Of a DNA stretch of 34,536 bases, positions 3,283-22,961 are shown in pieces. Numbering within the stretch: the stretch's first letter is position 1; each line of letters starts with the position of its first letter. The stretch is taken from contig DALYHZ010000003.1 in assembly GCA_031970635.1 (NCBI GenBank), positions 927 through 35,462 on the forward strand, given 5' to 3'. Below the pieces are notes generated by a model. It made no database searches. It had not been told where the DNA came from and saw only the letters and a list, made by a program, of their open reading frames with translations. This DNA comes from Methylococcaceae bacterium (GTDB lineage: Bacteria > Pseudomonadota > Gammaproteobacteria > Methylococcales > Methylomonadaceae). Position numbers and translations under genes: made by a program.

Positions 3283-4099
3283 ATTACTCGAAAAATTATT
3301 AACCGAAGGTACGCAAAAAGGCGACCGCACGGGAAACGGGACGCTTTCAATTTTTGGACATCAAATGCGTTTTGATTTGGCTGATGGATTTCCGCTTATC
3401 ACCACCAAAAAAGTACATTTAAAATCGATTATTCATGAGTTGTTGTGGTTTTTAAACGGCGACACAAATAACAACACGTTAGAGAAAAATGGCGTTTCAA
3501 TTTGGCGTGAATGGGCAGATGAAAATGGTGAATTAGGCGCAATTTATGGCAAACAATGGCGTTCGTGGGAAACACCCAATGGCGAAACCATTGACCAAAT
3601 TTCACAAGTCATCGAACAGTTAAAAACTAATCCAAACAGCCGCCGCATTATTGTTTCAGCGTGGAATGTCGCGGATTTGCCTGACGAAAAAATCAGCCCG
3701 CAAGAAAATGTCAAAAAAGGCAAAATGGCTCTCGCGCCCTGTCATGCGTTTTTTCAGTTTTACGTTGCAAATGGCAAACTTTCTTGCCAACTTTATCAGC
3801 GCAGTTGTGACACGTTTATCGGTGTGCCATTCAACATTGCCAGTTACGCGCTTTTGACGATGATGATTGCCCAGCAATGCGATTTAGAACTTGGCGAATT
3901 TATTTGGACAGGTGGCGATGTGCATTTGTATTTAAATCATCTTGAGCAAGCTAAAACACAGTTGCAACGCACACCGCGTGCTTTGCCAACGATGAAAATT
4001 AAACGCAAACCTGCTTCGATTTTTGATTATGTTTACGACGACTTTGAGTTAATCGGTTACGATGCCGATACACATATCTCTGCACCCATTGCTATTTGA
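3266..4099 (+). CDS. thyA: Thymidylate synthase (ThyA type)
   Basis: From ATG 3266 the product reads [38 protein letters not shown]. It has the catalytic [14 protein letters not shown], plus [21 protein letters not shown] and a C-terminal APIAI. It is nearly collinear with E. coli ThyA and overlaps the lgt stop by 17 nt. Confidence 0.95.
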
Positions 4100-4109
4100 G
4101 AGGTTTGTT

Positions 4110-5135
4110 ATGTTTACTTACCATCGTTTAATTGCATTTTTCCTGCTGTTATTACTCGCTGGTTGTGCGTCTGAACCGGTTATTCGGCCGAGTAAACCTT
4201 ATCCCACTGATACAGGTAAATTACCCAGTTATACGGAAGTCCGTCCCATTGTTGGCGTTTATGCAAATCAACCTGCTGTCACAGCGTTTGTGCAACACAT
4301 GGTACATGACTATGGTTTTTCAGAAGATTATTTGAACAGCCTATTTTCGCAGGCGAATAAATTGGATTCGGTTTTGCGTTTAGAAGTGGATGCGCAAGTT
4401 CCTCCCAAACCCAAATATACAGGTCCGGTTGCGCCTGAACCGCTTATTCCGCCTAAGCCAAAACCTACGCCAGGGTGGTCAAGTTATCGCAAACAATTCA
4501 TGGATGACGCACACATTAACAATGGTGTTGTTTTTTGGCGCGCCAATGCCGAAGCTCTGCAACGTGCAGCGGCAACGTATCATGTTGATCCGGAATATAT
4601 TGTCGGCATTATTGGTGTGGAAACCTATTTCGGACGTAACGTGGGTAAAACCAACACGTTCGACGCGCTCAGTACACTTGCATTTTTTACATTGCGTCGC
4701 GCTGAATATTTCACCAAAGAATTGGAAAACTTTTTACTCATGACCAAAGAAGAAGGTTATGAACCGCGAAATGTTATCGGTTCATGGGCTGGTGCGTTAG
4801 GATTAGGGCAATTTATGCCTAAAAGTTTTCGTAAACTTGCTGTTGATTTTAATGGCGACGGTAAGCGTGATTTATGGAATTCTGTTGATGCCATTGGTAG
4901 CGTTGCCCATTATTTTAGTAGTTCGGGTTGGAAATTTAATGAACCGGTCGCCACGCCTATCAATGGCGATATTGATGCTGAATACATTATTTTGGGAACG
5001 GATACTGGCAATCAATTTTGGGCAATTGGTGACAATTTTAAAACCATCAAAAAATACAACAGCAGTAACAAATATGCGATGGCTGTGCATCAATTGGGAC
5101 AATCGATTAAGCAGCGATATTTAGCAATGAAATAG
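4110..5135 (+). CDS. mltB: Lytic murein transglycosylase B-type lipoprotein
   Basis: ATG 4110 has a GAGAGG SD. There is a lipoprotein signal with lipobox LLLAGC. A Pro/Lys-rich linker is followed by the GIIGVETYFGRN catalytic-Glu motif and GALGLGQFMP, as in MltB/Slt35. Confidence 0.85.
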   Translation: MFTYHRLIAFFLLLLLAGCASEPVIRPSKPYPTDTGKLPSYTEVRPIVGVYANQPAVTAFVQHMVHDYGFSEDYLNSLFSQANKLDSVLRLEVDAQVPPKPKYTGPVAPEPLIPPKPKPTPGWSSYRKQFMDDAHINNGVVFWRANAEALQRAAATYHVDPEYIVGIIGVETYFGRNVGKTNTFDALSTLAFFTLRRAEYFTKELENFLLMTKEEGYEPRNVIGSWAGALGLGQFMPKSFRKLAVDFNGDGKRDLWNSVDAIGSVAHYFSSSGWKFNEPVATPINGDIDAEYIILGTDTGNQFWAIGDNFKTIKKYNSSNKYAMAVHQLGQSIKQRYLAMK

Positions 5136-6320: not shown

Positions 6321-6415
6321 AGCCAAATTTAGTGTAAAATCATCTCGTCGTTTTAAACGGCAGTTTGTGTTATTTTTTTCAAAGTTGTTTTTATTTTAAT
6401 TATTTGGAGTTATTC

Positions 6416-8448: not shown

Positions 8449-8754
8449 TTTTTCCAGTTGATAATGTTCACGCGCTTGTTGTGTCATCGCATGAACAATC
8501 ACATCGCCTAAATCGAGTAACACCCAATCTGAAGTCATATCGCCTTCCATACCAAGCGGGTGAACACCATTTTCTTTTACTTTGGCTTCAACGTAATCGC
8601 ATAAGGCTTTCACTTGGCGATTCGATGTACCGGTGACGACAATCATATAATCGGTAAAACTGGTTTTATCACGCACATCTAAAACCACTATGTCTTGTGC
8701 TTTACGTTCGTTTAATTCGCTTTCAACTAAAGCTAATAATGTCTCTGTTTGCAT
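8395..8754 (-). CDS. rsfS: Ribosomal silencing factor RsfS (Iojap/YbeB)
   Basis: [34 protein letters not shown] and [30 protein letters not shown] are collinear with E. coli RsfS. It lies downstream of nadD, as is usual. Confidence 0.9.
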
Positions 8755-8784
8755 TGTGTTCCTATTTTAAAATCAATCAAAAAA

Positions 8785-9408
8785 TCAGCGTTGATAAAGC
8801 CGATGTTGAATAATGTAATGGATAACCGCGTCTGGTAACAAAAAACGCGGGTTTTGTTGGGCGGTAATCATACCGCGAATTGCGGTTGCAGAAATGGCTA
8901 ATTGCGTAATTTCTTGAAAAAAGAGATGACCAGAACAATGTTCTTTTAAAAGGGCTTTTTCATCAGTCAATTTCGCGGCAAAAAATCGATTAAGTGGATT
9001 ATTTAATTCGGCATTTGGACGAGTAATGACCACGACATGCGCTAGATTAAATAATTCTTGCCAACGAAACCATGTTGTTAATTCATTAAACGCATCGCTA
9101 CCAATAAATAAAAGCAATGGTGTGTTTGGGTAATCATGGCGTAAAGCTGTTAATGTATCGAATGTGTAAGACTTTCCAGCGCGTTGCAGTTCTTGTGCAT
9201 CGACAATGAAATCGGTTTGATTTTGTGTTGCTAATTGCAACATTTCTAGACGTTGCGTTGCTGTTCCTGCTGGTTGTTCACGATGAGCAGGACGAGCGCA
9301 AGGAATTAAACGAACGTGGTCAAGCTCAAATAATTCCTTAAGTTCTAACGCTGAACGCAAATGCCCGTAATGAACGGGGTCGAATGTACCGCCGAAGATG
9401 CCAATCAT
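8785..9408 (-). CDS. nadD: Nicotinate-nucleotide adenylyltransferase
   Basis: The N-terminus IGIFGGTFDPVHYGHL carries the (H/T)xGH nucleotidyltransferase motif. ISATAIR lies near the C-terminus. The gene is in nadD-rsfS synteny. Confidence 0.9.
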   Translation of the reverse strand: MIGIFGGTFDPVHYGHLRSALELKELFELDHVRLIPCARPAHREQPAGTATQRLEMLQLATQNQTDFIVDAQELQRAGKSYTFDTLTALRHDYPNTPLLLFIGSDAFNELTTWFRWQELFNLAHVVVITRPNAELNNPLNRFFAAKLTDEKALLKEHCSGHLFFQEITQLAISATAIRGMITAQQNPRFLLPDAVIHYIIQHRLYQR

Positions 9409-9845
9409 GAGGCGAGTAAATTTTTTGAATACGCTAGCGTGTTATGAACAATTTTAATCAGCTCAGGTGTTAAATCACGCACTTCAGCGAAAACGGATTC
9501 TAATTCATCGTCAATATATTCATGCACAATTTCGTTGCGTAAATCATTTAAATCACGCATCACGTCAATGCTTTCAAATAATTTCCGTTTATGTGCTTTG
9601 TTGATAGTGTCAATTAACGTGCCTTGTGTTTCAAATTCGGCGGCATCAATCGCGCGAAAAACTTTGCGAACTACAAAATCAATTGTGCGTGAAAAACGAC
9701 TACACAAATTTTCGTAATGGTTAATAGTTTCAATATCGAGCAGCGCGTTTAAATCAATTTGCGCCACTTGTTCAAAAGAATAACTAAGCCAAAAAAGTTG
9801 TTTTTCAAGCAATGTGATTTGAGTTTGTAAATTTTCGATGCTCAT
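9405..9845 (-). CDS. HEPN-domain protein (HepT/DUF86- or HI0074-like), the putative toxin of an MNT-HEPN pair
   Basis: It carries the R-x4-H-x-Y motif in LRNEIVHEY near the C-terminus. The protein is 146 aa and looks helical. A 4-nt ATGA overlap links it to the upstream minimal nucleotidyltransferase gene, and another links it to nadD. Confidence 0.7.
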   Translation of the reverse strand: MSIENLQTQITLLEKQLFWLSYSFEQVAQIDLNALLDIETINHYENLCSRFSRTIDFVVRKVFRAIDAAEFETQGTLIDTINKAHKRKLFESIDVMRDLNDLRNEIVHEYIDDELESVFAEVRDLTPELIKIVHNTLAYSKNLLAS

Positions 9846-10126
9846 AAACTTATCGCTGTTGGAAAAATCATTCTGACAAATGGTGTTTCAAGTTCACCCG
9901 AATCTAAAACTAAATCAATTTTTTGTTCACCAAATTTATCGCAAAATTGACGTTTCACTTTTCGCAAAGCAGATTTTGTTAAATGTTTTGAAAAAATTAA
10001 CACGTCAATATCGCCACCTTTTTTACTGTCATCAACGCGACTACCAAATAAAAAGACTTGTGCGTTTTGGTCAAAAGTTTGGATGGCAGATTTCAATGTT
10101 TCGCGTTCTGCGTTCGTTAGTCGCAT
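9842..10126 (-). CDS. Minimal nucleotidyltransferase (MNT/MntA-like), the putative antitoxin
   Basis: This 94-aa protein contains LFGSRVDDSKKGGDIDVLIF, matching the GS-x(n)-D-x-D polymerase-beta-type nucleotidyltransferase motif. It is paired with the HEPN gene. Confidence 0.75.
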   Translation of the reverse strand: MRLTNAERETLKSAIQTFDQNAQVFLFGSRVDDSKKGGDIDVLIFSKHLTKSALRKVKRQFCDKFGEQKIDLVLDSGELETPFVRMIFPTAISL

Positions 10127-10136
10127 GAGTTATCTT

Positions 10137-12221
10137 TTAATTGCTGAACTGCAACTCAGGATAAACTTTTTGCGCCCAATTTATCGCACCATCTCTAGCT
10201 TGTTTCAAAGCAGGTACATCTTCAATCGCATTTATTTTTTTCATAAATTGATGTGTTTTTGCCATATCTTTTGAAAACCGATAAGTGTTTGCATAACAAG
10301 CAACCGCTTTGCGTTCATCTCCACTCAACGCAAACACATCGCCTAAATTCGACCACGCCGCCGCTCTGTCTGGTGCTAACAATAAAGTTGCAATCAACAT
10401 TTGTTGAGCAAGTTCTAAATTTTTTTGTTTCAAATAGGCAAAACCCAAATTGTTGGCAATTTCAACATCGGAAGCATCTAAACGATGAGCTTCAGAAAAT
10501 TTCGCCACCGCGCCATCAATATCTTGTTTGTTTAATAGCGCGTGACCTTCATCGTTAATTTTGCGGGCGGCTTTTTTGTTGCCTTTTTTAGGTTTGGGAG
10601 AAGATTCAATTTTGAGTTTTGCTTCTTGGATTTCAGATTCGTGACCAACGCCGCCATTATCCACAGCGGAATCAAGCATCTGCATTACGGACGATTTTGT
10701 TGCTGACGTATTTTGAACGATGGCTACTGTTTCATTTTTGACAGCGGGAAGTTGTGCGCCCTGTTTTTCTTCGTATTCTTTACCATTGAAAACGTACAGG
10801 CTATTTTTTGCTGGAACAACTTTGTCATTTATTTCTTCAGTTCCTTTTTTTGTTACTAACAAATCAGGGTATTCTTTTTGGCTTTCAATTATGGATATAA
10901 CTCCTTTGTAAGCTGCTTTTTTACTAGAATTATTTTCATCATAAAAACCAGAGTTATCTAATCCAGTTGCTATAGAGCCAATGTAATGCCAATCATTTTT
11001 TGAAAATAAAAATAAATTACTCCAGTTATCTTCCACGCCAAAATGAACATCGCTATTTTCGAGCAAAAATACTGTTTTACTCTCAGAAAGATGTAACGAT
11101 TTAGTCTGTGTAATACTCGGTACATCTCCATAAGCTCCAAACTCTCCAAAATCAGACTGTTTAGACAAAATTTGCCACCAATCTTTTTCCTTTTGGTATG
11201 TTGCTATTCCAATTTTAACTCCACAAGCATGACAATCGTCGAACAGTCCATTTTCAGATGTTTTTGTGAATATGACATGAAAATTGTCGTTTCCATTTTT
11301 AAAGGATTGTTCAAACCAAATTTTGGTGTGACTGTCTTTTGCTAATTCTTTTAAAAATCGAGTACGAAGTACATTTAAATCACGACTACTAAAAAACTCG
11401 TATTTTTCATTGAGAAAACGGTAAGTTTCTTGCGTTTTAGTTTCAGTAACATTGAAAGTAAGGATTAAATCAGGATGTTCATAATTTGTGTTTGTGTGAG
11501 CTTCTGATATTTCGTTATCAAAAATACTCAAATATGAATACTCTTTTTCAACCTGCCATGTATCGCCTTTTTTCACAAAAACAACAGAACTTAATAAAAT
11601 GTTTTCTGGATAACTAACCGAAGTTGAAGTCAGCACAATGTGCTTTGTATTTCCATCTTGCGTAAATTCTTTTGATTCGAGAATTTTTACTGTTCCTGTT
11701 TTACCTGCAAATTTCTCATAATTTTCTAAATTGCTAGGCGGATCGATATTTTCCCAAGATGCCGTTTTTGTATTCGCATCATAATTACTAAACAAAATTT
11801 CAAGAGCTTTGCCATCATCAAAAGCTCCCGTAATCATTCGATTTTCTTCTGCTTTATCACACGCCATTTTGACCAAGGCAGTAACGTCCGAATTATCTGT
11901 TGGCAACGTCAACGTTTCGGAAGCAAACTTTTCTTGGCTTGTACCGTCTTGGCGATATTTCACACCTTCTTCTGCAACGAAACGGCTCTCACAATTCGTG
12001 TCGGCATTTTGAATCACATAACTGTCAGTCAAATCTCTGACCATGTTAAAACTCACCCAGCCGCTACGATCTCGTTTAATTGTGTTGGTGTCGAGGTAAA
12101 ATTTCGCCGCTTTTTTATCCGCGCCAACGGCTGTAAAGCCTGCGAACTTTTCTTCTTGTTTATCGCAAGCGATGAGCATAAACACCAACGACATGGCTAC
12201 TGCAAAAGATTTGAATTTCAT
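10137..12221 (-). CDS. 694-aa lipoprotein of unknown function with C-terminal TPR repeats
   Basis: The lipoprotein signal is MKFKSFAVAMSLVFMLIAC. The N-terminal segment FYLDTNTIKRDRSGWVSFNMV resembles the small adhesin-E-like lipoprotein fold family. About 400 aa of AT-rich unrecognised sequence includes a CHAC motif. A Lys-rich linker is followed by about 3 TPR units (ANNLGFAYLKQKNLELAQQ, AAAWSNLGDVFALSGDERKAV). Confidence 0.6.
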   Translation of the reverse strand: MKFKSFAVAMSLVFMLIACDKQEEKFAGFTAVGADKKAAKFYLDTNTIKRDRSGWVSFNMVRDLTDSYVIQNADTNCESRFVAEEGVKYRQDGTSQEKFASETLTLPTDNSDVTALVKMACDKAEENRMITGAFDDGKALEILFSNYDANTKTASWENIDPPSNLENYEKFAGKTGTVKILESKEFTQDGNTKHIVLTSTSVSYPENILLSSVVFVKKGDTWQVEKEYSYLSIFDNEISEAHTNTNYEHPDLILTFNVTETKTQETYRFLNEKYEFFSSRDLNVLRTRFLKELAKDSHTKIWFEQSFKNGNDNFHVIFTKTSENGLFDDCHACGVKIGIATYQKEKDWWQILSKQSDFGEFGAYGDVPSITQTKSLHLSESKTVFLLENSDVHFGVEDNWSNLFLFSKNDWHYIGSIATGLDNSGFYDENNSSKKAAYKGVISIIESQKEYPDLLVTKKGTEEINDKVVPAKNSLYVFNGKEYEEKQGAQLPAVKNETVAIVQNTSATKSSVMQMLDSAVDNGGVGHESEIQEAKLKIESSPKPKKGNKKAARKINDEGHALLNKQDIDGAVAKFSEAHRLDASDVEIANNLGFAYLKQKNLELAQQMLIATLLLAPDRAAAWSNLGDVFALSGDERKAVACYANTYRFSKDMAKTHQFMKKINAIEDVPALKQARDGAINWAQKVYPELQFSN

Positions 12222-17340: not shown

Positions 17341-17435
17341 TGTAAGAATTTTTCAATAAATTGTCGGAACTACGTCACAGAAATGGAATTTCAATTCTTT
17401 AACATAAGAAATAATGTTGATAAGGGATTTTTAAT

Positions 17436-17462
17436 TAAAGTTTAGATGGCTTATGCCGATAC
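17436..17462 (+). promoter_or_regulatory. Sigma-28 (FliA)-type promoter TAAAGTTT-N11-GCCGATAC
   Basis: It matches 15/16 positions of the class-3 flagellar promoter consensus TAAAGTTT-N11-GCCGATAA with the exact 11-nt spacer. It is intergenic, correctly oriented and 84 nt upstream of ATG 17547. Confidence 0.75.
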
Positions 17463-17546
17463 CGACAAAGCGGTTCTTTAGCATTTAAAAAGTCCGTCAG
17501 TTAAGGTAGCGAGATTACTTACACTTATCAATTGAGGTAAACGATT

Positions 17547-18179
17547 ATGACAACTTCAACAATTAGTTCGCCAGCAGCATCATTCTTAACGCAAAACATT
17601 CAAAGTGTTAATACACAATCGAAAACGAATAATGATAAAGAGAATTCAGGGGCATTAGGCATTACTGCTATTAACACTGCTGGTTCATTTTTACAAAATG
17701 TTATACAGTCTCTACAAGGTTTGGGCTTAAATGTTTCCGGTGTTGGTAGCACACAAACTGCGGCAGTCACAGGTTCATCCTCTGCAACATCATCGAATAC
17801 AAGTAAAGCCTTGCAAACTTTTTTGTATGATTTATACAAGGTTTTAAATCAGGGGCGTTCTGAACAAACATCCTCTGATAGCACGAGCTCTGATGATTAC
17901 AATAGTTCGCAGGTTGCAAATGTACAAAACACATACAACGACCCTAATGCAAACTTGCAAAATTTAATCAATTCGCTTGGCGATAAAACAAACAGTAACA
18001 CTGGAAAAAATGCCACATTACAAACTGATTTTGCTAATCTTGTCCAATCATTGGGTGGTTCAACGTCGTCTTCAACAACGACTAATTTGCAAAGCTTTTT
18101 AAAACAATTATCAGCAAATACCGGAAATGGTAATTCGCTAGTAGGCGGTTTAGGTTCTCTTTTCTCGGCAGTTGCTTAA
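17547..18179 (+). CDS. Orphan 210-aa Ser/Thr/Asn/Gln-rich protein, a candidate flagellum-co-expressed or exported protein
   Basis: A GAGG SD lies 9 nt upstream. There is no signal peptide, TM segment, Cys, Trp or His. Five amphipathic LQxhhxxL-type segments are separated by S/T/N spacers. A sigma-28 promoter lies upstream and a hairpin downstream. Confidence 0.65.
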   Translation: MTTSTISSPAASFLTQNIQSVNTQSKTNNDKENSGALGITAINTAGSFLQNVIQSLQGLGLNVSGVGSTQTAAVTGSSSATSSNTSKALQTFLYDLYKVLNQGRSEQTSSDSTSSDDYNSSQVANVQNTYNDPNANLQNLINSLGDKTNSNTGKNATLQTDFANLVQSLGGSTSSSTTTNLQSFLKQLSANTGNGNSLVGGLGSLFSAVA

Positions 18180-18192
18180 ATTCACGAAAATT

Positions 18193-18227
18193 AACATCCT
18201 TCCTAAGCTCTCAATTGGAAGGATGTT
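18193..18227 (+). terminator. Perfect 11-bp stem-loop after the 210-aa gene, a probable terminator
   Basis: AACATCCTTCC (18193-18203) pairs with GGAAGGATGTT (18217-18227) around a 13-nt loop. No clear T-run follows the stem. Confidence 0.5.
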
Positions 18228-18305
18228 GATGCACAACAAATAGCTTCTATCTAAAACCACGTTACAATAGGCTACTTTTTAGCCTCTATTCTTCAAAATT
18301 CAACT

Positions 18306-19853: not shown

Positions 19854-22800
19854 TTATGCCACAAGCGCAAAGTTCGCCGCAACAAAGTCGCCTGAACTTA
19901 GTGAAGTAACACCTGTTAATGTGACCAAATCCGTGACGGTTGTCGAACTCGCTGCAAGTGTCGTTCCACCTGTAGCCATATTGACTGCTGAGACGTGACC
20001 AAGTGTGCCATCAGACCATACGACGAGAATATCATCATTTGCTGTTACCGCACTTGCAAAGGTCAAGGCTCTTGTACCACCTGTTTCGATTGCGGTTTGA
20101 ACAGCGGCGGCATTGGTAAATGTTGTGCCTACAAGTTCGATAATGTTATTGCCCGCCGCTAGTGTAGTTGCTGCACTCGCAGCCGTTACTGCAAGCGTAG
20201 AACTGGTTGTAACAGCTACGGCATTACCATCTTTTAGTGCAGAGATGTAACCCGTTGTTCCGCTCGTACCAGCATATCCCGTAAGTGAAATGCTTAACAC
20301 GTCACCACCTGTGCCTCTTGTAAAATCGGTAATCACATCAATTCCATTCAAAGTGGTTGCAAGTAGTTTAAATGTGTCAGCACCGCTACCACCCGTTAAA
20401 CTATCAACACCAACACCACCTGTGATCGTATCATTGCCAGAACCACCCGTAATGGTATCTGCTCCCGTACCGCCTGTGATTGATACTGTGCCTGTGCCTG
20501 CATAAGTGACATTATTTGCGTAATCGCCTAATGTTACAGTATCTGCGCCACCGCCACCATTGATAGTCACCACAGCCGCTGCGCCGCTGAAAGTAAGCGC
20601 ATCTACGCCAGAAGTACCTGTGATTGAAGTAAAGCCTGCTGTGCCAAAATCCGCACCTAATGTACCACTCGAAGATGTACCGCCAAAGGCTAACGTTGTA
20701 AAACCTGTAACATGGGCAAAATCACCAGAAACTAGTCCAGATGTTGCTGTGAAACTCAATGTATCGCCTGTATTACCACCACCGTTAATCGTTGCCGCAG
20801 CTAAAATATCTGTGTGATTTGCAACGATCACCGTATCTGCACCAGCCCCTGCAGTGATGCTATCAGCACCACCTGCACCGCTAATGGTATCTGCACCAGA
20901 ACTGCCTGTGATGGTATCTGCTAACGTGCTACTACCTGTGATATTTACAGCTGATTTGCCTGCGGTAATCACCGTTGATGCGGTTAGCCCTGTGACAGTT
21001 CCTGAGGTTTCAATACCTGCAGTGCTTGAAGAAGGTGAACTTCCTATCTTGGTTACATAGCCTTTTGTATCACGAATCCATGAAAGCGCATCTGCACTTA
21101 ATACAGCCACTTGTGTTTGAGTAAATGATTCAAGTTGTCCTGCATCGGTTGCGCTTAATGCCGCAAGTTGTGCAGTTGTAATAGCAGGCACTGCACTAGT
21201 CGTCAAAGAATGAATCGCACCTGTGCTAAGACCAGCTGTTAAACCTTTAAATGTGGCTGGTTTCATTTCGGCAATGACGCTACTGGTTAAAGCTGCGGCT
21301 TGGGTTGATGTTAAACCACCGATTTGAGTTGTTGAGGATGATAAAGATGGAGACTGATCTGCGGTTAATGCTGCAATATGCGCCGTATCAAATCCTAGTA
21401 AGTTTAAACTTTTAACTGCTTTCGGGTCTAGCACAGCAATAGCGGCTGTTGAGAGAGTCGCTGCTTGAGCAGATGATAGTTTAGCAACTTGTGGTTGCAA
21501 TAATGCAGCGGCTTGGTCTGCACCAAAAGAGGGTAATTGACCTGCTGCCGTTGTTGTCAAAACTGCCATTTGATTAGGTGTGAGAGCCGCGATTTGATCT
21601 GCTGACATGGAGGCAAACGCGGCAGCTTTAAGCGAAGGCACAGCTGCTGTTGTAATGGCTTTTAATGTGGCTGGTTGTAATGCTACAACGTCATCAGAGG
21701 TTAGATTTGCAACTTGTGTTGCAGACAATGCTTTGGCTTGTACTGGGGTTAAAGCCGCCGCTTGATCTGAAGTTAATAGAGCAATTTGTGCTGAATCTAA
21801 ACCAAGAATATTTTTTGCAGTTAAACCAGGAATCGATTGTGGGTCGATAGCAATTAACGATGCTGAGGCAATGGCGTGTACTTGTGCAGATGTTAATGCC
21901 GACATCGCTTGAGGTGTTAATAATGACGCGCCAGTTGAATCGATAGCCGCTATAGATGTTGTGCTTAAATAACCAAATTGTGCAGGTTTTAATGCCGCAA
22001 GTTGCCCATCACCTACCAAATAAGAGAGTGTTAACCCCGCCATATTCGTTTTATTAAAGCCGGCAATTGCGGGAAGACTTAATACGGCTACATCATCTGG
22101 TGTTAATGCCGCCACTTTTGCAGAAGTTAACGCGCCAATTTGTGCGGCTGTAATGGCGGGAGCTTGATCGATAGTAATTGCAGCCAATTGCGCCGTGGTT
22201 AATGCACCAAATGTTTTAGCCGGAAGTGCAGACAAAAATGTGTTGCTTAGTGTTGCCACAATTTCTGTTGGTAACAGCGCTATAGATTTAGAAGAAAACG
22301 AAGCGGCTTGAGTCGTTGTCAAAGCGGCAATTTGATCAGCTGTTAAACCAAGCGCTTGCGCAGAACCAATAGCACCAATTTGGGCAGGCGTTAAAGCGGC
22401 AATTTCGGTTGGCGTTAACAACGCCATACTGTCTGAGGTTAATAAGTTAATTTTTAACCCTGCCAATCCACCAGGTGTTTTTGCAGTGCCAATAGAGAAT
22501 GCGCCTAAGTGATCGCTATCTAGAGCAATCAATTGGCTTTTAGTCAATGCTGTCACTTGATCGGATGTCAATGCTGTGATTTGGGTTGGCGTAAATCCGT
22601 TCAACTGGTCAGTCGTCAACGCTACAATTTCTGCTGTTGTCAAACCTGGAATTGCTTTTGATGAAATGCCTGCTAAAGCTCCGGGATCGATATTTTTCAA
22701 TTGGCTGACGGGCAAAGAAGTGATGTTTTTAACGGTTAATGTTGCTAATAAATCGGCTGTCAATCCTGCCGCTTGCGTTTTTGTCAGCACTGCAAAATCA

Positions 22801-22883
22801 GCACTGGTAAATTTTGCAAACTGGGCGGGTGTAACTGTACTAATATCTGTTGTTGCAGCAAGTGCAAATGTTGCGGTAGCCAT
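19854..22883 (-). CDS. 1009-aa secreted or surface repeat protein. It has ~65 octapeptide LTxxQIAA repeats, RTX-type Gly/Asp repeats and a type I secretion-type C-terminal domain.
   Basis: A GAGGA SD lies 8 nt before the ATG. There is no signal peptide and no Cys. The RTX-type block is GGTGADTITGGSGNDTITGGVGVDSLTGGSGADTF, followed by GIDVITDFTRGTGGDVLSISL and a ~180-aa tail, as in T1SS substrates. Confidence 0.8.
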   Translation of the reverse strand: MATATFALAATTDISTVTPAQFAKFTSADFAVLTKTQAAGLTADLLATLTVKNITSLPVSQLKNIDPGALAGISSKAIPGLTTAEIVALTTDQLNGFTPTQITALTSDQVTALTKSQLIALDSDHLGAFSIGTAKTPGGLAGLKINLLTSDSMALLTPTEIAALTPAQIGAIGSAQALGLTADQIAALTTTQAASFSSKSIALLPTEIVATLSNTFLSALPAKTFGALTTAQLAAITIDQAPAITAAQIGALTSAKVAALTPDDVAVLSLPAIAGFNKTNMAGLTLSYLVGDGQLAALKPAQFGYLSTTSIAAIDSTGASLLTPQAMSALTSAQVHAIASASLIAIDPQSIPGLTAKNILGLDSAQIALLTSDQAAALTPVQAKALSATQVANLTSDDVVALQPATLKAITTAAVPSLKAAAFASMSADQIAALTPNQMAVLTTTAAGQLPSFGADQAAALLQPQVAKLSSAQAATLSTAAIAVLDPKAVKSLNLLGFDTAHIAALTADQSPSLSSSTTQIGGLTSTQAAALTSSVIAEMKPATFKGLTAGLSTGAIHSLTTSAVPAITTAQLAALSATDAGQLESFTQTQVAVLSADALSWIRDTKGYVTKIGSSPSSSTAGIETSGTVTGLTASTVITAGKSAVNITGSSTLADTITGSSGADTISGAGGADSITAGAGADTVIVANHTDILAAATINGGGNTGDTLSFTATSGLVSGDFAHVTGFTTLAFGGTSSSGTLGADFGTAGFTSITGTSGVDALTFSGAAAVVTINGGGGADTVTLGDYANNVTYAGTGTVSITGGTGADTITGGSGNDTITGGVGVDSLTGGSGADTFKLLATTLNGIDVITDFTRGTGGDVLSISLTGYAGTSGTTGYISALKDGNAVAVTTSSTLAVTAASAATTLAAGNNIIELVGTTFTNAAAVQTAIETGGTRALTFASAVTANDDILVVWSDGTLGHVSAVNMATGGTTLAASSTTVTDLVTLTGVTSLSSGDFVAANFALVA
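20375..20925 (-). repeat. Coding RTX-like Gly/Asp-rich nonapeptide repeat region
   Basis: TGSSGADTISGAGGADSITAGAGADTV, INGGGGADTVTLGD and GGTGADTITGGSGNDTITGGVGVDSLTGGSGADTF fit the GGxGxDxUx calcium-binding repeat. Confidence 0.75.
21085..22830 (-). repeat. Coding tandem array of degenerate 24-nt (8-codon) repeats, consensus L-T-x-x-Q-I-A-A
   Basis: Protein residues ~20-600 can be written in a nearly uninterrupted 8-residue register, for example LTPTEIAA LTPAQIGA IGSAQALG LTADQIAA LTTTQAAS FSSKSIAL LPTEIVAT LSNTFLSA LPAKTFGA LTTAQLAA. Confidence 0.8.
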
Positions 22884-22934: not shown

Positions 22935-22961
22935 GTATCGGCAAAATAAAGCAGATCTTTA
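22935..22961 (-). promoter_or_regulatory. Sigma-28 (FliA)-type promoter TAAAGATC-N11-GCCGATAC (read on the - strand)
   Basis: The reverse complement of 22935-22961 is TAAAGATC tgctttatttt GCCGATAC. This matches 13/16 consensus positions with the exact 11-nt spacer. The -10 octamer is identical to that of the 17436 promoter. It lies 51 nt upstream of ATG 22883. Confidence 0.65.

Follow-up and report, generated by a model that had tools for sequence, protein, structure and literature searches.

A 34,536-nucleotide stretch of DNA from a Methylococcaceae bacterium (GenBank assembly GCA_031970635.1, contig DALYHZ010000003.1, positions 927 to 35,462 of the forward strand; hereafter the window, numbered from its first letter) contains a gene for a 210-residue protein, at 17547-18179 on the + strand, behind a near-consensus promoter for the flagellar sigma factor FliA (sigma-28). 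The gene is likely a member of the flagellar regulon. Our overall reading, that it is a late gene of this regulon and that its product leaves the cell through the flagellar type III system, we put at about even. The promoter motif, its recurrence before homologues and a recurrent flaG partner carry the regulatory part of this reading, and the architecture of the protein and of its longer paralogues carries the export part.

The promoter spans 17436-17462 on the + strand. Its -35 element, TAAAGTTT (17436-17443), agrees with the sigma-28 consensus at eight of eight positions, and its -10 element, GCCGATAC (17455-17462), at seven of the eight positions of GCCGATAA. The two are separated by the spacer agatggcttat, exactly 11 nt, so that TAAAGTTT-N11-GCCGATAC matches the consensus TAAAGTTT-N11-GCCGATAA at 15 of 16 positions. 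The initial annotation had described a promoter of this type, with this match and spacing, and the description holds: no other site on either strand of the window comes within one mismatch, and none of 100 dinucleotide-preserving shuffles of the window gave a comparable site. When up to three mismatches are allowed, two sites are found (0.70 expected), and the second, at 22935-22961 on the - strand, also lies ahead of a gene. The layout originally described stands as well, with a 206-bp gap to the longest divergent FapA open reading frame (ORF), 84 nt between the end of the -10 element (17462) and the ATG at 17547, and a GAGG Shine-Dalgarno sequence. No sigma-70-type site was found on the + strand upstream of the 210-residue ORF.

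Comparison with homologous loci (numbered here with the prefix L) strongly backs the sigma-28 reading, both in the conservation among orthologues and in the motif before distant family members. Upstream of the 73% (L007) and 61% (L004) orthologues the footprint TTAAAGTTTA ... TGCCGAyACC is invariant, with the -35 element unchanged and the -10 element reading GCCGACAC, whereas the 11-nt spacer varies at five positions among the window, L007 and L004. In both orthologous loci the upstream gene encodes an EF-hand protein, in place of the fapA gene of the window. We then scored the promoter regions of 21 distinct family loci against the 16 consensus positions. Eleven reach at least 13/16, with sites that start 65-135 nt upstream of the ATG. 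The site at L009, counted among the eleven, is doubtful, as its spacer is 12 nt long and its -10 element is poor. Against this, 26 of 1606 background windows of 300 nt reach at least 13/16 (at most 1.6%), true sites counted in.

The sites recur before distant homologues in unrelated gene contexts. L018 and L012 (Ca. Methylomicrobium oryzae RS1) carry TAAAGATG-N11-GCCGATAA (14/16) and L024 carries TAAAGTTT-N11-GCCGATAT (15/16), and three longer paralogues described below (L019, L021 and L027) share TATAG(G/T)TT-N11-GCCGA(C/T)A(A/G) at 13-14/16. Among the Rhodocyclales, the sites are TCAAGTTC-N11-GCCGATGA at L031 (13/16), TCAAGTTC-N11-GCCGTTGA at L029 (12/16) and TAAAGTTA-N11-GCCGTAAA at L032 (13/16). 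All the fetched DNA together holds 14 distinct sites of at least 14/16, of which 12 are correctly oriented before just three gene families: the 210-residue family, an ALTTAQ/RTX family (L004, L007, L011) and the EF-hand family (L004, L007). The family promoter sequences fall within the spread of sites to which FliA binds in vivo in E. coli, such as tar (TAAAGTTT-N11-GCCGATAA), flxA (TAAAGATT-N11-GCCGATAG), flgKL (TCAAGTCC-N11-GCCGATAA) and trg, which ends in GCCGATGA (PMC4183435). No flagellin gene is present in any fetched locus, hence there was no class-3 promoter of the same lineage to set beside them.

A consensus match by itself is no proof of function, and many FliA-bound sites in E. coli have no clear regulatory output (PMC4183435). 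The motif could therefore be a chance occurrence, or be read by another sigma factor, with the ORF expressed by other means. We consider this highly improbable given the empty shuffle control, the retention of both elements around a varying spacer, the recurrence of the motif before homologues in unrelated contexts and before two neighbouring gene families, and the lack of a sigma-70 site. Judged from the sequence, the promoter at 17436-17462 appears to be functional and, because of the motif match, the sigma factor that uses it is very probably FliA.

The transcribed unit appears simple. A 5' leader of about 77 nt is predicted at 17470-17546 (+), from a start that is inferred, not mapped, to lie 6-9 nt past the -10 element, and the GAGG Shine-Dalgarno sequence at 17534-17537 (+) stands 9 nt before the ATG. 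The 3' half of the leader and the Shine-Dalgarno sequence are kept in the orthologues, and the start of the coding sequence at 17547 is confirmed by the conserved N-terminus of the homologues. A riboswitch or other structured leader was considered and rejected (leader fold z = -0.31; no Rfam match in the window). Just past the stop codon, a hairpin with a 14-bp stem (18190-18230, +) is the likely transcript end: the region 18180-18300 folds with a minimum free energy of -26.7 kcal/mol (z = -4.66), which none of 200 shuffles equalled, and another small hairpin, this one with a T-rich tail, follows at 18269-18285. The lack of an upstream sigma-70 site, together with the hairpin after the stop codon, indicates that 17547-18179 is a self-contained single-gene unit. 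It would be transcribed as such from the FliA promoter and so be switched on late in flagellar assembly, alongside the flagellin-class genes.

Gene neighbourhood provides independent backing for a flagellar link, in the form of family-flaG gene pairs in three Rhodocyclales genomes. In Dechloromonas denitrificans (CP075187, L029), in a second complete Dechloromonas-type genome (L031) and in a Rhodocyclales metagenome-assembled genome (MAG) with a different neighbourhood (L032), a flaG gene (PF03646) lies 25-29 nt downstream of the family gene on the same strand (10703-11110, 10694-11095 and 8722-9126, respectively). A che cluster lies upstream in L031, and L032 has HDOD and DUF2802 genes downstream. 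Neither fliD nor fliS follows flaG in any of the three loci, and for this reason these flaG genes may be extra paralogues dedicated to the family. FlaG is co-transcribed with late flagellar genes, competes with the FliS-flagellin complex at the FlhA gate, and is released, presumably via the flagellar type III system (PMC11536152). A further flagellum-associated neighbour occurs in a Methylobacter MAG (L017), where a FlxA-like gene (3899-4207, -; PF14282, 34.3 bits) is convergent to the family gene and carries GCCGATAG about 40 nt before its ATG, with no clear -35 element. The flaG pairs and the FlxA-like neighbour thus appear to tie the family to the flagellar system regardless of the promoter motif.

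The divergent neighbour of the gene in the window was confirmed by Pfam as a FapA_N plus FapA protein. Its adjacency, which had been offered as a functional clue, was rejected as such: FapA stands next to the family gene in the window genome only, and the orthologues have the EF-hand gene at that position.

The protein had also been described as an orphan, and this proved wrong. A word-indexed search returned 20 homologues and an exhaustive phmmer search 69 representative clusters at 50% identity, to which a profile search added Dechloromonas denitrificans and Rhodocyclales MAGs. The family ranges over flagellated Methylococcales (Gammaproteobacteria that oxidise methane or methyl compounds) and Rhodocyclales, with named carriers including Methylobacter spp., M. 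svalbardensis, Ca. Methylomicrobium oryzae, Methylococcales and Methylococcaceae MAGs, and Novimethylophilus kurashikiensis. All members are labelled ‘hypothetical’ save two Joint Genome Institute entries named ‘FliJ’, a name without Pfam support. Pfam and NCBIfam scans of the window protein, and the Pfam scan of 34 members, returned sub-threshold noise only (for example E2_bind, PA2169, Pex19 and the FliK domain Flg_hook).

Family members share a common architecture, in which a disordered, uncharged and conserved N-terminus of about 40 residues is followed by two helices, a variable middle, four further helices and a C-terminal tip. The alignment shows an N-terminal pattern M-x-x-S-x-I-S-S ... 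Y-x-T-Q, five helix motifs of the form L-Q-x-(F/L)-hydrophobic, and a conserved tip G-S-x-x-S-x-x-A. Cys and Trp are nearly absent family-wide, and the first 25 residues are almost uncharged. Many members also bear His runs (GGHHHHGG) and DxDxDG-like DGDNDGS loops; the window protein has neither. Two members of 270-275 residues (P0007 and P0008) show an internal duplication of the two-helix module L-Q-T-D-F-x-N-L ... L-Q-x-F-L, which indicates that the helices behave as repeatable units.

The window protein conforms to this scheme. Its composition is as originally claimed, with no Cys, His or Trp and a single Arg among its 210 residues (Ser 37, Thr 26, Asn 26, Gln 17; isoelectric point 4.76). 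Residues 1-43 (17547-17675, +) form a predicted disordered N-terminus, a candidate export signal: the AlphaFold2 predicted local distance difference test score (pLDDT) is below 50 over residues 1-41, the first ~16 residues are conserved across homologues (M1, S4, Q16), and the first 25 residues, MTTSTISSPAASFLTQNIQSVNTQS, have zero charge, include 16 Ser, Thr, Asn or Gln and contain no hydrophobic stretch. A Sec- or Tat-type signal, with positively charged n-region and hydrophobic core, is absent on reading of the sequence, here and likewise across the family. The remainder (17676-18167, +) is modelled as six short amphipathic helices joined by Ser/Thr/Asn-rich disordered linkers (helical blocks at pLDDT 74-88). 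The five amphipathic segments noted in the initial annotation coincide with helices at residues 44-58, 80-102, 133-145, 154-168 and 177-191, and the model adds a sixth at 196-207.

Attempts to place the protein in a recognised family were unsuccessful, as first reported. It has no Pfam match at E values up to 1 and no NCBIfam match; the lowest E value was 0.046 in a PDB profile search and 7.6 in Foldseek with the short-form model. The flagellin domains PF00669 and PF00700 are absent from the window protein and from the family list of the 34 scanned members, and BLASTP against Salmonella FliC termini reached no better than E = 0.058, which is noise; the faint flagellin likeness once seen in the N-terminus thus has no statistical support. 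FlgM (PF04316) gave no match in the Pfam and NCBIfam scans, FlxA-like PF14282 gave none, and when the family was compared by hhalign with the FlxA-like protein of L017 the probability was 0.7%. RTX repeats (HemolysinCabind) are absent from the family, and hhalign detected no homology to the neighbouring EF-hand protein. A candidate N-terminal motif shared by the family, the EF-hand and the FlxA-like proteins was dropped, as the search expression was too loose. No harpin family (HrpN, HrpZ or Hpa1 type) appeared in the Pfam scans, though no search aimed at harpins was made; the resemblance to them is one of composition only (Cys-free, rich in Ser, Gly, Gln and Asn, with L-x-x-L-L helices). The protein is thus assigned to none of the known families compared, since all membership tests that ran were negative. 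The family is best filed as new and uncurated, of a known kind: sigma-28-controlled, flagellum-associated accessory proteins.

The family also has long paralogues. In L019 and L021, proteins of about 465 residues have the family N-module (two helices) and C-module (the later helices with the tip) on either side of an insert of ~280 residues. The genes (L019 4828-6237, L021 4873-6261 and, in a third locus, L027 10001-11374) are unannotated; all three inspected long-form genes lie behind sigma-28-like sites, and the long forms have no signal peptide. The insert recurs in 83 clusters, nearly all of 410-480 residues with a few shorter or partial, which are Methylococcales wherever named and carry no Pfam domain; it was seen in no other architecture. 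Within it the residues H246, E247 and H250 of an HExxH motif are invariant, as are H347 and M355. The long-form AlphaFold2 model has 200 residues at pLDDT of at least 90 in the insert and a disordered stretch over the first 44 residues. Its only significant fold match was leishmanolysin (1lml; E = 6e-4, probability 1.00, 244 columns, template-modelling score 0.27), and there was no Pfam match and no PDB sequence match. The long paralogues accordingly carry a putative leishmanolysin-like (M8) metallopeptidase. Leishmanolysin-type peptidases act outside the cell or at the cell surface.

Taken together, these features suggest a route out of the cell. The disordered, uncharged and conserved N-terminus would be recognised by the flagellar type III apparatus, making the protein a late, non-structural substrate. 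The 210-residue protein would be released from the cell, where its helical scaffold would act, and in the long paralogues the same scaffold would bear the leishmanolysin-like metallopeptidase outside the cell. That the protein is exported by some route is, on the evidence of its sequence, slightly favoured; the N-terminus that is conserved and disordered and unlike a Sec or Tat signal, the scarcity of Cys and Trp, and the peptidase-carrying long forms all speak for it. That the route is the flagellar type III system is a tentative proposal, somewhat short of even, to which the conserved disordered N-terminus, the sigma-28 control and the flaG pairing point indirectly.

Alternatively, the protein may stay in the cytoplasm as a regulator or adaptor of late export, either as a partner of FlaG at the FlhA gate or in a role like that of FlgM or a chaperone. 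Sigma-28 control is shared with flgM and flaG, the tight pairing with flaG in three genomes would suit a partner of a protein that works at the export gate, and the 210-residue protein is small and all-helical. The family matches none of FlgM, FliS, FliJ or FlaG, however, and the long paralogues bear a putative peptidase of a type that is normally extracellular, which argues against a purely FlgM-like regulator, one of the options raised at the outset. In addition, none of about 20 Methylococcales loci lies inside a flagellar gene cluster, and genomes may hold several differently regulated paralogues (L024, L025). We regard a cytoplasmic role as unlikely.

Several observations weigh against the export of the protein by a flagellar route, or against flagellar control of the family as a whole. 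The short-form AlphaFold2 model is of moderate confidence only (mean pLDDT 62, predicted template-modelling score 0.55), the searches revealed no homologue among known flagellar export substrates, and the 210-residue protein could instead possess a C-terminal type I signal. Neither fliA nor flagellar genes were seen in the window, where FapA is the sole flagellum-linked gene; at lineage level, motile gammaproteobacterial methanotrophs (Methylobacter, Methylomicrobium, Methylomonas) carry motility gene sets (PMC6956133). Furthermore, a sigma-28 site is missing from about half of the family members, so flagellar control is not universal for the family. These members adjoin genes for resistance-nodulation-division (RND) efflux, OmpR-type two-component systems and Spy/CpxP-like (Metal_resist/LTXXQ) proteins; in L035 the family gene lies 45 nt after a Spy-like gene.

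Non-sigma-28 members (L009, L020, L025, L015, L016, L017 and L022), which are of the His-run type, instead show a perfect palindrome, CGGCAA(A)-N2-4-(T)TTGCCG, about 45-55 nt before the ATG and preceding a AAGGTGAATA ribosome-binding region. This palindrome may act as an operator or form a 5'-leader hairpin; at its position L004 and L007 have GTAATT-N-AATTAC. One MAG, MFD02138.bin.2.64, carries both kinds of gene, L024 with its 15/16 site and L025 with a His run in an RND and two-component context, which indicates that the family has split into paralogues under different control.

These members raise the question of whether the family belongs to metal binding or envelope stress, with sigma-28 control a lineage-specific addition, in which case the promoter would reveal little of what the protein does. 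The His runs and DGDNDGS loops of many members, the efflux, two-component and Spy/CpxP-like neighbours, and the separate upstream palindrome would all suit such a function. The window protein, on the other hand, contains no His and no longer has the acidic loops. Moreover, sigma-28 sites are present in members from both proteobacterial classes and before short and long forms alike, a distribution that speaks for an old link and against a recent addition. We judge this explanation decidedly improbable, noting that it overlaps with a late flagellar-regulon role and is not strictly exclusive of it.

Two further gene families accompany the family under similar promoters. In the window, an ALTTAQ-repeat and RTX protein of 1009 residues (19854-22883, -; ALTTAQ_rpt 5e-46, HemolysinCabind 4e-16) lies 51 nt downstream of the second, weaker sigma-28-like site, TAAAGATC-N11-GCCGATAC (22935-22961, -; 13/16). 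Elsewhere the ALTTAQ sites reach 15/16, before two orthologues (L004 15343-15317, -; L007 13859-13833, -) and the L011 homologue (6350-6376, +), and in these three loci the ALTTAQ gene is linked to the family gene. The ALTTAQ/RTX protein is therefore a probable member of the same regulon. In L011 the ALTTAQ, DUF6367 and family genes stand on one strand behind a single site and adjoin plasmid-type RepL and Rep3 genes. We found no literature on ALTTAQ and no study of the FliA regulon in methanotrophs.

The EF-hand protein (134-146 residues, no signal peptide) is encoded at L004 9331-9735 (-), L007 7350-7754 (-) and L016 3625-4065 (+). In L004 and L007 it is the divergent neighbour, with a 15/16 sigma-28 site of its own, arranged back-to-back with the family promoter; in L016, a distant Methylobacter MAG, it lies downstream of the family gene. 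The EF-hand gene has been lost from the window, where a degenerate relic of its promoter at 17361-17387 (-), TCCATTTC-N11-TCCGACAA (10/16), now faces fapA.

The ALTTAQ/RTX linkage allows another view of how the protein might be exported, namely that the 210-residue protein is a type I secretion substrate, or an accessory of the ALTTAQ/RTX protein, with the C-terminal tip as signal and sigma-28 merely timing both. The linkage in L004, L007 and L011, with an apparent shared operon in the last, is consistent with this, as is an acidic, Cys-free protein with the conserved C-terminus G-S-x-x-S-x-x-A. The family itself has no RTX repeats, however, most family loci are without an ALTTAQ gene, no type I pair of ABC transporter and membrane-fusion protein lies beside any family gene, and the flaG pairing would be left unexplained. 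Type I secretion thus seems to us quite unlikely.

The rest of the window is ordinary chromosome (G+C content ~42%), with genes that include gyrB, lgt, thyA, pgpA, thiL, ubiD and proA as well as those for a lytic transglycosylase, cytochrome c peroxidase, peroxiredoxin, a LysR regulator and PBP1A. Its sequence is identical to contigs of the MAG GCA_031970735.1 and to an ENA contig of 219,819 bp, and its UbiD falls in a 90%-identity cluster in which the members with names are Methylococcales or Methylococcaceae MAGs. Two side observations were made. The gyrB gene is split over two overlapping ORFs, one with the ATPase and DNA_gyraseB domains (31-1272, +) and one with the Toprim domain, insert and C-terminal region (1226-2488, +); the split points to a frameshift near 1226-1272 that could be an assembly error or mark a pseudogene. 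A likely HepT-like/MNT-type nucleotidyltransferase toxin-antitoxin pair lies between nadD and a TPR gene (9405-9845, -, and a gene of ~94 codons at ~9842-10126, -), on the basis of two weak Pfam matches, of which the HepT-like one scores 22.5 bits against a cut-off of 23.5.

Enteric bacteria, Campylobacter, Vibrio and Legionella are known to have sigma-28-dependent genes with no part in flagellum construction; to our knowledge, almost nothing of the kind has been described for methanotrophs. E. coli flxA and the other non-structural FliA genes (modA, ynjH, ves) are, like the present gene, small, located outside flagellar clusters and preceded by near-consensus FliA promoters. FlxA has no sequence kinship with the family, however, and the family here is larger and has a peptidase form and a recurrent flaG partner. 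FlaG is likewise a small late-class product without a signal peptide, though the family gene itself has no PF03646 match, and whereas canonical flaG follows flagellin, here it follows the family gene, with no fliD or fliS after it.

A closer architectural parallel is offered by the flagellinolysins, in which conserved terminal helical modules surround a variable middle with an acquired HExxH metallopeptidase (PMC5595980). The long paralogues share this topology, behind sigma-28 sites; the window gene itself lacks the insert. The end modules of the present family differ in that they are not flagellin domains and have much shorter helices, the peptidase is leishmanolysin-like (M8), and no result suggests that the family assembles into a filament. 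The Campylobacter proteins FlaC, FspA, Cia and Fed are described as co-expressed under sigma-28 with late flagellar genes, lacking a Sec signal and carrying export information at the N-terminus (PMC2764114, PMC5223770). The present family, in contrast, occurs in free-living bacteria that oxidise methane and methyl compounds, not in pathogens, and its export is predicted. Vibrio cholerae FrhA, a large adhesin, is under indirect sigma-28 control via the cyclase CdgD (PMC6504787). FrhA parallels the neighbouring ALTTAQ/RTX protein rather than the 210-residue protein, and differs from it in that a sigma-28-like site lies directly upstream here.

A more far-reaching possibility, which we consider speculative and on present evidence unlikely, is that the family constitutes an unrecognised class of late flagellar type III substrates whose end modules serve as a portable export and display cassette. 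On such a scheme, the leishmanolysin-like protease could have been gained in methanotrophs, as a form of flagellum-delivered proteolysis independent of the flagellinolysins; the Rhodocyclales cassette could come with its own FlaG paralogue governing access to the export gate; and the sigma-28-controlled ALTTAQ/RTX and EF-hand neighbours would complete a secreted toolkit timed by the flagellum.

Methanotrophs are key players in the methane cycle, and this analysis yields for them a candidate regulon of three gene families under one promoter type. It also yields an uncurated protein family that spans two proteobacterial classes, a recurrent flaG partnership, and a peptidase variant that gives a hint of flagellar export. 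What is inferred about regulation is solid, and the clues from synteny and architecture are new. Even without export, there would remain a well-supported annotation of 17547-18179 as a late flagellar-regulon gene. If export is true, flagellum-mediated enzyme secretion would extend to free-living environmental bacteria, and secretion engineering in methanotrophs would gain a compact carrier module from the family.

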